The notes under the pieces: model-generated | What the model saw: only the letters and a program-made list of their open reading frames with translations | What the model was told of the DNA's origin: nothing | The model's database searches: none | Sequence record: PQ850593.1 | Length of the DNA stretch: 64,000 nucleotides | Reading direction: 5' to 3' (one strand) | From: Escherichia phage AidaStucki_Bas93 | Shown: positions 45,144-47,253 of the stretch, in pieces | How positions within the stretch are numbered: the stretch's first letter is position 1 | Layout of the letters: every line of letters starts with the position of its first letter | Made by a program: the position numbers and the translations under genes

Positions 45144-47174
45144 TTAACCTCTATTCAATGAACATTTAGGAGAATTACAATAAACTTGATTCATAGAACC
45201 AAGCGTACAACTTTCAGCATCGCGCCACGGAATCTGCTTAAAACACCCTGAGCAGTAGCCGAGGGTTGACCACATTGCTTTGGTGAAGTCAGTGCTTCGA
45301 TTTCCGTCGAAGCTGACAACAGTTTTGCGGAGAGCTGTTCGTGATTCAGGAAACACACCTGCTTTCTCAGCAGGTTCCTCCTTTTTTGGCTTAGTTGAGA
45401 TTGCAAAAATACTGTTGCTACGTTTCTCAACATAAGCATCAACAACATCCTCCAGAGTAATGCCTGTCTGTTTCGCTGAGGAAGGTAATACAGTCATACG
45501 ACCAATCATATCTTCAGTTACACGTAAAGCAAATTCAGGACGACGGGCGTTTGTTGTATCTGTTGCTTTAATCCAGACATAACCATCTTTGATCGTAGCA
45601 TTAGATACTTTCTTCTTTATATCTACAGCGCAGACTTTACAGATGTCTTCACCACGAAGACGACTGAGTTCATCATCAAACTCGTTCTCTGTTTTAACTT
45701 CACCACAGATTTCACAAACACCAATAGGAGTTTCCTCCTCTTCTTCATCTTTAGGCTTAGTCAAACCTTCCAGACATTCAGGGTGCCAGTAGCATTGATA
45801 TGCGAAGACTGCTTTAGGTGCATCCTTCCAATCAATGTGTTTATCACAACCGCCACAATCACCATGAGAATGTGCTTCCCAGAATTTACGAGTGATAGTA
45901 ACGCCATTCTTGTTGACGAAACTATCATTCATATCAAAAGGGATATCATCATCAAAGTCAGCAGTAGTTGACTCAGGCTCCTTTTTCTCCAGAGATGGGT
46001 CAACAAAACGACCTGCTGTGATCACTAAACGAACCATAGCATTAACTTCGGAGATACAGGATACTGTCCCACGGTAAACAATTTTAGGGTCTTTCAGGGC
46101 ATCCTGATAAGCCTTAATGTCTACGTTATGAACATCACCTTCGATATACTCTTGAGATTTCTCATCGTAGATATAACCAATCATCTTACCACGAGAAGGA
46201 ACAGCACCAGCAGTTGCATAAGGGACAAACTCATGTGGTGTGATCTCCACAGTCATGTCGCGGCGAATGTCAATGTTTCGATCGCTTGCGATTTTGTTTT
46301 GACTTACCACTGCGTTTCTTCGACGAACGTCTGCCGCTGTCACTCCCGGCTTCGTGTCGTAAGGATTGCTTGTACTGCTTTTTGAGGAACTTTGATAGTT
46401 GCTTTGGCTGTAGTTGTTCGAGTAGTAATTGCCCCAACGATTGATTACCGTAAAAACCGGAAGCTCGTGGGCGACCTCTTCAACTAGAGTCATGCTGTTG
46501 TTTGACACATCAAAGATGTATTCTGTACCAACTTTACATTCAAAGTGCTCATCAATGCGATTCTTGTGAGACCTAGAACGCTTCAGAATCCACATCAACA
46601 TATCTTCTTCAGAAGCACCAAACCAATCTCTGTTACAACGTGCAAGATGGAAAGGACGCTCTTCATTACGGATGATATGAAGACGATTATCAGAAGCATC
46701 GTGCCAGATTAAGGTGAAAGCACCATCCAGCTTTTGAATAGTCTCTGCTGCACCAATAGTGTTAATAGAGTGGCAGATGTTTTCACTGTCTACCTCGAAG
46801 TTTTTACTGTCAGGTAACAGGTCTTGGTTCATCAAGGTTCCGTTATGAACCAGAGTGATGTTACCGTGTTGGAAAGGATGGGCGTTCTTGGCGTTAACTG
46901 CACCTTTCGTTGCATGACGGCTGTGACCAACAATCCATGAAGGTGCTACAGTGTAAGCTGTTTCACCAGTGGTGTGCTTCTTGTACTCATCTTTAAGGAT
47001 GAATGCGAAAGAAGGAAGTGCCTCTTTATAAGTGAAGACCTCTTTAGTGCTTTTACGCTGACCAAAGATACCAGAGGAGTGCTGTCCTCGGAATACTCCA
47101 GCATAAAAGAGTTGGTTAAATATATCTAAATCAGTGCTTGACAGATTACCGCCAGCTAATACGATGCCACAAAT
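45144..47174 (-). CDS. class-II (Ntn) glutamine amidotransferase domain fused to a large Cys-rich C-terminal domain; start extended to a non-ATG codon
   Basis: Hand translation upstream of the track start gives (I)CGIVLAGG...FRGQHSSGIFG...HSRHATKGAVNAKNAHPF, i.e. the N-terminal Cys and H.RHAT motifs of GAT-II; only ATT lies between the stop and the Cys codon. Confidence 0.55.
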   Translation of the reverse strand: MCGIVLAGGNLSSTDLDIFNQLFYAGVFRGQHSSGIFGQRKSTKEVFTYKEALPSFAFILKDEYKKHTTGETAYTVAPSWIVGHSRHATKGAVNAKNAHPFQHGNITLVHNGTLMNQDLLPDSKNFEVDSENICHSINTIGAAETIQKLDGAFTLIWHDASDNRLHIIRNEERPFHLARCNRDWFGASEEDMLMWILKRSRSHKNRIDEHFECKVGTEYIFDVSNNSMTLVEEVAHELPVFTVINRWGNYYSNNYSQSNYQSSSKSSTSNPYDTKPGVTAADVRRRNAVVSQNKIASDRNIDIRRDMTVEITPHEFVPYATAGAVPSRGKMIGYIYDEKSQEYIEGDVHNVDIKAYQDALKDPKIVYRGTVSCISEVNAMVRLVITAGRFVDPSLEKKEPESTTADFDDDIPFDMNDSFVNKNGVTITRKFWEAHSHGDCGGCDKHIDWKDAPKAVFAYQCYWHPECLEGLTKPKDEEEEETPIGVCEICGEVKTENEFDDELSRLRGEDICKVCAVDIKKKVSNATIKDGYVWIKATDTTNARRPEFALRVTEDMIGRMTVLPSSAKQTGITLEDVVDAYVEKRSNSIFAISTKPKKEEPAEKAGVFPESRTALRKTVVSFDGNRSTDFTKAMWSTLGYCSGCFKQIPWRDAESCTLGSMNQVYCNSPKCSLNRG

Positions 47175-47253
47175 TTTCTAATCCACCTGAAGGGTAAACC
47201 CTTTCATCTAATTAACCTTTAAATTATGCCCCTTCGTCAGAGGCACCCATTGA

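Follow-up and report, generated by a model that had tools for sequence, protein, structure and literature searches.

A 64,000-nucleotide stretch of DNA from Escherichia phage AidaStucki_Bas93 (PQ850593.1; hereafter the window, meaning the whole stretch) carries on its minus strand a gene for a class-II glutamine amidotransferase (GATase) that very likely initiates at an AUU codon (47174-47172), directly before the codon of its catalytic cysteine. On this strand the start region reads ...CAGGTGGAT TAG AAA ATT TGT GGC ATC GTA..., and we confirmed the claim of a first-pass annotation, made from the sequence alone, that the gene has no canonical start codon. An in-frame TAG (47178-47180) two codons before the ATT (47172-47174) shuts the frame to upstream starts, only AAA and ATT separate this stop from the TGT codon of the catalytic Cys (47169-47171), as had been described, and the next in-frame ATG, GTG or TTG is a TTG at 46835, 113 codons downstream. 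The Shine-Dalgarno (SD) sequence AGGTGGA (47182-47188) was also found as claimed, with a spacing to the ATT of 7 nt where about 8 nt had been given; at this spacing its duplex with the 3' end of the 16S rRNA amounts to about -5.9 kcal/mol. An upstream in-frame ATG (47205-47207) opens a nine-codon frame (MKGFTLQVD) that ends at the TAG (47180-47178) and is probably not a functional start. Overall, the site offers an in-frame ATT at a functional distance from an SD sequence and no usable canonical start. The full coding sequence (CDS; ATT, 675 codons and TAA; 45144-47174) encodes 675 residues counted from the catalytic Cys, in which a class-II glutaminase is fused to an OB fold and zinc (Zn) modules.

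The window phage is a Kuravirus (phiEco32-like): the region shares 99.5-99.7% nucleotide identity with Escherichia phages Bas94, LAMP and Bas92, and 95-97% with phiEco32, SU10, NJ01 and about 65 further Kuravirus genomes. The ATT start is already in the databases and is inconsistently annotated there. The GenBank CDS begins at the ATT in phiEco32 (phi32_83, 2008), LAMP (gp83), SU10 (gp85) and Bas92 (Bas92_0065), and elsewhere at a TTG (Paul), at an ATG ten codons in (SU7 and ECBP2) or at a GTG (KBNP1711). Among searchable papers, a set without the original description of phiEco32 or the study of Iyer et al. 2009, we found none discussing the ATT. What is added here is the comparative support for the ATT, the recurrence of weak starts together with a leader hairpin, and a description of the C-terminal domains.

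Conservation of the start region

An error of sequencing or assembly that conceals an ATG can be dismissed. Nothing beyond prior suspicion spoke for it, and a 60-nt query covering the leader and start matched 96 phage records from many laboratories and platforms, 68 of them exactly and 28 with one mismatch elsewhere (all at least 98.3% identical). The same 60 nt were found in seven metagenome contigs, and IMG/VR contigs agree. The concordance of the 96 records settles the check for an assembly error that had been proposed for 47160-47185. Both the ATT and the TAG were read directly in 13 Gordonclarkvirinae sequences from three genera, with which the 96 records are consistent. As to whether homologues keep ATT, ATC or ATA at this position, all Gordonclarkvirinae examined have ATT, and ATT or ATC occurs in other lineages.

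Constraint was found on both sides of the start codon. The 48-nt leader (-48 to -1) is invariant across the three genera, with about half of the third positions changed in the adjacent CDS. Over the first 100 codons, mismatches at first, second and third codon positions numbered 19, 12 and 58 between the window and Suseptimavirus SU7, and 17, 12 and 51 between the window and Nieuwekanaalvirus KBNP1711. Because substitutions are so strongly biased towards third positions, the N-terminal part is functional coding sequence under purifying selection on its translation, and gene models that truncate it are wrong.

We compared homologous loci (labels beginning with L) and protein clusters of the GATase family (labels beginning with P). 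An ATG stands directly before TGY-GGN in Grimontviridae, Lahexavirus, Zobellviridae and many uncultured marine phages, and since most outgroups have ATG-TGY there, the translation start is fixed at the codon before the Cys. Decisive were protein clusters with odd N-termini, whose members share only 42-44% identity with the window protein: P0023, P0024, P0058 and P0069 begin with MK[GE][FL][TA]LQVDY[KS][IL]C and P0017 with MDYKIC. Their DNA (P0023, P0024, P0058, P0069 and P0017) carries, as in the window, a hairpin, AGGTGGATTA(T/G)AAA, ATT (TTG in L073) and TGY. The SD sequence AGGTGGA is identical in L030, L031, L073 and L074, in all of which TAT replaces the TAG. Hairpin, SD sequence, 7-nt spacing, ATT and TGY recur in four independent lineages (L030, L031, L074 and L078). 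Through this TAT, the frame of the upstream ATG runs on into the enzyme in L030, L073 and L074. In L031, which has no equivalent of this ATG, the called start is a GTG inside the SD sequence, and the in-frame codon before that GTG is a stop. L078, with an otherwise unrelated leader, has AAG in place of the upstream ATG, an SD sequence (GGAGAGGA) without the GTG, and the same TAG two codons before the ATT. Where the supposed leader peptides of the lineages differ, the changes lie in the hairpin loop or compensate each other in the stem. Because of the stop before the GTG in L031, the lack of both ATG and GTG in L078 and the nature of these leader differences, the N-terminal extensions of these clusters are best read as gene-caller artefacts. 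Initiation at the AUU is the best explanation because the codon before the Cys is the sole element common to all leader-sharing lineages. This supports the earlier proposal that initiation at the ATT would place the Cys at position 2: the one start candidate that all of these lineages keep stands immediately before its codon, and the outgroups encode Met-Cys.

These starts bear on public annotation. A CDS covering the start was present in 4 of 11 sampled annotated records and missing in the other 7, and P0001, with 211 members the largest protein cluster, is a 563-aa truncation; about two thirds of the sampled public records and the largest cluster thus describe a truncated, catalytically dead protein, and other clusters carry spurious N-terminal extensions. 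Wrong N-termini, either cut short beyond the Cys or running back to an upstream ATG or GTG, were seen in 30 of 120 cluster representatives (P0001, P0002, P0003, P0017, P0023, P0024, P0028, P0058, P0069 and about 15 others). Such errors of gene calling are systematic and can be traced to the weak start codons.

Weak start codons and the leader hairpin

The window leader is predicted to fold into a hairpin (AAGGG-TTTA-CCCTT; 47190-47203) that ends 1 nt before the SD sequence. Stems of different sequence occupy the same position in L074 (AAGAG/CTCTT), L031 (ACAAGGC/GCCTTGT), L078 (AAGGGA/TCCCTT) and L156 (CAGGGGC/GCCCCTG), and further weak-start leaders carry GCCTT/GAGGC, GCTAC/GTAGC, ATCTC/GAGAT or TGGG/CCCA.

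Weak starts recur across the family, in at least 12 distinct leaders. The codon before the Cys was ATG at 36 and ATT at 5 of the IMG/VR loci (ATC and TTG at none). At the metagenome loci it was ATG in 62, ATT in 9, ATC in 1 and TTG in 1, and in the odd Logan contigs ATT and TTG occurred four times each (ATG and ATC none). Marine lineages have ATT (L113 and L106) or ATC (L124), and TTG precedes the Cys in L073, L075, L076, L077, L091 and L156. The class of representatives listed as starting with Met-Cys hides further weak starts; one of them is in P0004, the nearest outgroup of the window clade, which begins with TTG in spite of its listing as 'MCG...'. After removal of duplicates, 7 ATT, 1 ATC and 6 TTG leaders were left, 11 of which (of 14) have a hairpin of 4-7 bp ending 0-2 nt before the SD sequence, with at least nine stem sequences, and the SD spacing in this class is uniformly 7 nt. 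Mean folding energy from -42 to -9 was -5.6 kcal/mol in weak-start leaders vs -2.5 kcal/mol in 58 ATG leaders (Mann-Whitney p = 1.4e-5), which is suggestive of weak starts pairing with stronger local folding, the comparison being uncorrected for shared ancestry. The pairing of weak start and hairpin differs even between close proteins: P0028 (L078; ATT, hairpin) and P0026 (L157; ATG, no SD-adjacent hairpin) are 74% identical.

Other searches of the leader were negative. An Rfam scan gave no match above the gathering threshold (best TLS-PK6, 20.7 bits vs 44, and astro_FSE, 11.7 vs 70), no repeat of the leader was found elsewhere in the 64-kb window, and the whole-leader fold was no more stable than shuffled sequences (z = -0.97). 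An alternative helix that would sequester the SD sequence (GGUUUACC with GGUGGAUU) was the minimum free energy (MFE) structure in some folds and was rejected, being broken in L030 and L078 and not conserved. Short hairpin stems lose register in the MAFFT alignment.

The recurrence of the pair suggests that a weak start with an SD-abutting hairpin is a reusable way to tune translation, in which the hairpin could act as a 5' stabiliser, as a standby or anti-occlusion element, or as an operator. We regard the weak start, fixed across a phage subfamily together with the invariant 48-nt hairpin leader, as a selected feature, and its likely purpose would be to hold or regulate glutaminase translation at a low level relative to the partner ligases.

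Weighing of alternative explanations

We propose that the AGGUGGA SD sequence, 7 nt from the AUU, would position the 30S subunit so that the initiator tRNA decodes AUU as formylmethionine (fMet). Deformylase and methionine aminopeptidase would remove the fMet, for which Cys is permissive as second residue, and the mature protein would start at Cys1 (N-terminal peptide CGIVLAGGNLSSTDLDVFNQLFYAGVFR), the N-terminal nucleophile of a class-II glutaminase. An alternative explanation is that initiation at the AUU is coupled to termination: the nine-codon frame would be translated, melting the hairpin, and ribosomes stopping at the TAG would re-initiate at the AUU. The ATG at 47207 is in frame, with AAGG 8 nt upstream of it, the stop of the mini-frame lies 3 nt from the ATT, and the upstream ATG also occurs in L030, L073 and L074. 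However, these three lineages have no stop and hence no termination near the start, while L078 (AAG) and L031 lack the upstream ATG and yet keep hairpin, SD sequence and ATT; the loop-located or stem-compensatory differences in the mini-frame also fit a constraint on RNA rather than on a peptide, and we consider coupling unlikely.

The same ATG could also be used if the TAG were read through and a 12-residue propeptide (MKGFTLQVDxKI) then removed to expose Cys1. The leader is in frame, and gene callers give P0023, P0024, P0058 and P0069 as fused proteins with Tyr (TAT) at the position of the TAG. Yet the TAG is fixed in Gordonclarkvirinae and recurs in L078, amber read-through is inefficient in wild-type E. 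coli, and L031 has its stop directly before the GTG, with neither ATG nor GTG in L078. The nine 'codons' moreover show no synonymous change across genera, against 51-58% third-position change in the CDS. A suppressor tRNA for the TAG was considered and rejected, as no tRNA gene lies within the 64-kb window. In the window, the path from a canonical start to the Cys is interrupted by the TAG, and the ATG is absent from L031 and L078; because the TAG cuts the leader and the ATG is not conserved, propeptide processing is unnecessary and improbable, and read-through seems very improbable. Even harder to credit is that the N-terminal part is a decaying remnant and the real product a 563-aa protein from the TTG at 46835, or from other downstream starts, without glutaminase activity. 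Most gene callers do produce such models (P0001, 563 aa, 211 members; phages Paul, SU7, ECBP2 and KBNP1711), and the SU10 paper lists a mass of 63.8 kDa (PMC4281155). Against this stand the third-position bias of the first 100 codons (58 vs 19 and 12), the retention of all catalytic residues, a frame that is open across three genera and many outgroups, and the fact that the records pick differing downstream starts, none of them conserved.

Several points weigh against initiation at the AUU and the functions proposed for it. The 63.8 kDa that the SU10 proteomic analysis lists as the 'expected' mass of the GATase protein (PMC4281155) fits the 563-aa truncation better than the full length of about 76 kDa, and no N-terminal peptides were reported there. 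Being an expected mass, the value may reflect the annotation that the SU10 authors used; the SU10_085 CDS in GenBank (KM044272) comprises 2031 nt from the ATT (about 76 kDa). In L030, L073 and L074, where an open frame leads from the upstream ATG to the enzyme, the leader sequences would permit a propeptide form. A stronger SD sequence does not compensate for the weak start, as SD strength did not differ between the classes (p = 0.26), and support for the hairpin from covariation comes from a handful of other lineages, the leader being invariant in Gordonclarkvirinae. On the side of function, we identified no synthase domain or ammonia channel in the protein, and the role of amidotransferase is deduced solely from the glutaminase domain and the gene neighbourhood. 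What the analysis shows directly is the sequence arrangement, its conservation, the fold and the catalytic residues; initiation at the AUU itself, removal of the Met, the role of the hairpin and the substrate are what we infer.

Protein architecture, gene cluster and known systems

We confirmed that a complete class-II amidotransferase domain emerges when the frame is followed upstream from a truncated model, as the first-pass annotation had reported. Residues 1-240 (46452-47171; all protein and gene features below are on the minus strand) form a class-II glutaminase domain of the N-terminal nucleophile (Ntn) type with Cys1 as nucleophile. This part matches the Pfam families GATase_6, GATase_7 and GATase_4 and has the four-layer alpha-beta-beta-alpha Ntn fold. 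R73, N98-G99 and D123 of GlmS align with R85, N110-G111 and D128 (glutamine-binding Arg and Asp, oxyanion Asn-Gly), which together with C1-G2 are invariant in the family (C1 in 91 of 91 sequences). The profile similarity to GlmS is confined to this part, and identity as GlmS was rejected: the NCBIfam glmS model scored 38.8 bits against a cut-off of 418 and PRK00331 44.8 against 381, and there are not two SIS domains. The name 'L-glutamine-D-fructose-6-phosphate aminotransferase' in many records stems from phrog_4736.

Past residue 195 or so, no Pfam or NCBIfam match was obtained. The three Cys clusters that had been described in the C-terminal part are present as written; the accompanying statement that this part holds no placeable motif is partly revised, as an OB fold and three Zn modules can be placed in it. 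A disordered Ser/Asn/Tyr-rich linker (residues 243-277; 46341-46445; predicted local distance difference test, pLDDT, < 50) leads to a helix followed by an OB-fold beta-barrel in the predicted structure (residues 279-390; 46002-46337). Zn module 1 (residues about 415-475; 45747-45929) has the ligands C439, C442, H463 and C466; its Cys are conserved in 87 of 91 sequences, and at position 463, 62 sequences have C and 25 have H. Zn module 2 (residues 483-528; 45588-45725; C486, C489, C511 and C514) includes a long helix and gives weak LIM/FYVE/RING-like profile matches. It is followed by a small alpha/beta domain (residues 531-593; 45393-45581; pLDDT about 90), for which no specific fold match was obtained, and by Zn module 3 (residues 613-675; 45147-45335; C640, C643, C665 and C670). 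Modules 1 and 3 are homologous repeats (BLASTP E = 4e-6), and the ligand sets of all three modules are conserved in more than 85% of the 91 homologues. The C-terminal part is thus an OB fold with Zn modules rather than a linked synthase or acceptor domain, and as modelled it resembles a region for binding or docking, perhaps of nucleic acid. The OB fold and Zn modules would probably serve to dock the enzyme to a macromolecule, either its substrate or a partner, and not to carry out synthase chemistry.

The gene lies in a cluster transcribed in the order COOH-NH2 ligase, 205-aa protein, Amidoligase_2, GATase, DUF7195, 74-aa protein, ATP-grasp-like ligase, 82-aa protein and GGACT, most of which is kept in L030 and L031. 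Its upstream neighbour, a glutamine synthetase-like carboxylate-amine ligase (Amidoligase_2, PF12224; 47254-48357), is a candidate partner and possibly acts with it in trans; it sits immediately before the GATase gene at most of the loci whose upstream gene was read (L030, L031, L073, L156 and L157). The phiEco32-like ligase type 2 (COOH-NH2_lig, PF14395) lies at 48981-49787. Downstream are an ATP-grasp-like ligase (43505-44698; weak Pfam matches to Dala_Dala_lig_C and RimK, annotated as ATP-grasp in phage Paul) and a gamma-glutamyl cyclotransferase (GGACT, AIG2-like; PF06094, E = 1.6e-17; 42579-42998). Within this cluster the GATase would most likely hydrolyse glutamine and pass on ammonia, or act as an amidohydrolase.

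Directly downstream of the GATase gene is the small, always syntenic DUF7195 gene (PF23825; 44906-45139). Genes of this family (74-98 aa) also directly follow the GATase in L030, L031, L073-L078, L156 and L157; their core (VRKIPMT..GCDNLR..VEIPFPTVI..VLADY) is conserved, and their C-terminus varies. A Pup- or ubiquitin-like tag was rejected for lack of a conserved C-terminal Gly, Gln or Glu. Replication genes come directly after the cluster (38772-42359): a DnaB-like primase-helicase (40569-42359), a DNA polymerase A 3'-5' exonuclease domain (40021-40575) and a 434-aa open reading frame without a Pfam match (38772-40076).

Between the Amidoligase_2 and GATase genes, a terminator-like hairpin (GUGCCUCU-GACGA-AGGGGCAU; 47226-47246) follows the amidoligase stop in both MFE and centroid folds. 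Its stem shows compensatory changes (Kuravirus GGGTGCC..GGGGCAC vs Suseptimavirus GGGCGC..GGGCGC), and the T-run after it is weak. In L030, L073, L074, L076, L077, L025, L026, L007 and L009, a motif TTAAATGT(T/A) precedes the hairpin or SD sequence by about 8-12 nt. It resembles the phiEco32 gp36 promoter consensus (tAATGTAtA), from which transcripts start 6-8 bp downstream (PMC8948821), and transcripts from the motif would have their 5' end at the hairpin. In the window (47212-47224), AAGGT replaces the AATGT core of the relatives, and a gp36-type promoter probably does not precede the GATase gene here. At two loci, L075 (1-392) and L078 (1-318), an HNH_3 homing-endonuclease gene lies directly upstream of the GATase, in the position of the amidoligase. 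This points to insertion of homing-endonuclease genes or to recombination at the junction, either of which might help to move leader and start modules between lineages.

Iyer et al. reportedly described in 2009 a ligase cluster of phiEco32-type phages (Amidoligase_2, COOH-NH2 ligase type 2, ATP-grasp, GAT-II and GGACT). The window cluster, with the same gene order and Pfam families, is of this type. The one functional proposal for it that we traced is modification of the cell wall that would prevent superinfection, in the summary of PMC10580990. The OB/Zn architecture of the GATase C-terminus is to our knowledge an addition to this proposal, and a concrete lead on the function of a widespread, uncharacterised phage ligase cluster. 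According to the BASEL study, Gordonclarkvirinae are remarkably resistant to restriction-modification systems and have no known DNA modification pathway (PMC11990801). If the enzyme, by way of an SSB-like OB fold and the three Zn modules, and the neighbouring ligases modified nucleic acid (DNA or RNA) by an undescribed pathway, with the hairpin and weak start as a transferable dose-setting module, this could explain the resistance; we regard this combined scenario as a speculative one with little chance of being correct.

Among class-II and Ntn enzymes we compared the protein to GlmS, PurF, AsnB and GltB, and to the Ntn amidohydrolase EgtC. Unlike GlmS, PurF, AsnB and GltB, it has no SIS, phosphoribosyltransferase, synthetase or other acceptor domain, and its scores with the NCBIfam models glmS, purF and asnB are far below the cut-offs. 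Its C-terminal 400 residues, with an OB fold, three Zn modules and a small alpha/beta domain, are unlike those of the class-II enzymes compared. In Bacillus subtilis PurF an 11-residue propeptide precedes the catalytic Cys, similar to the short in-frame leader that gene finders place before the Cys in some homologues (P0023 and others). Unlike in PurF, the leader in the window is cut by the TAG and its ATG is not conserved.

The confirmed AUU starts of E. coli are infC and pcnB only, the initiator tRNA decodes AUU, and reporters with AUU reach about 1-2% of AUG (bioRxiv 10.1101/063800). The GATase protein was nonetheless detected by mass spectrometry in SU10, with nine peptides (PMC4281155). 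Similar to infC (initiation factor 3) and pcnB (poly(A) polymerase), the GATase gene combines AUU with an ordinary SD sequence and conservation in relatives, and low or regulated expression is plausible. It differs in that the start was deduced from sequence, its position being fixed by the chemistry of the enzyme (Cys as residue 2), and in the SD-abutting hairpin that accompanies the weak start. The infC gene is autoregulated through initiation factor 3, which we have no grounds to expect here. As a third strongly supported natural AUU start, located in a coliphage, it is a useful test object, since the Cys pins the start to one codon.

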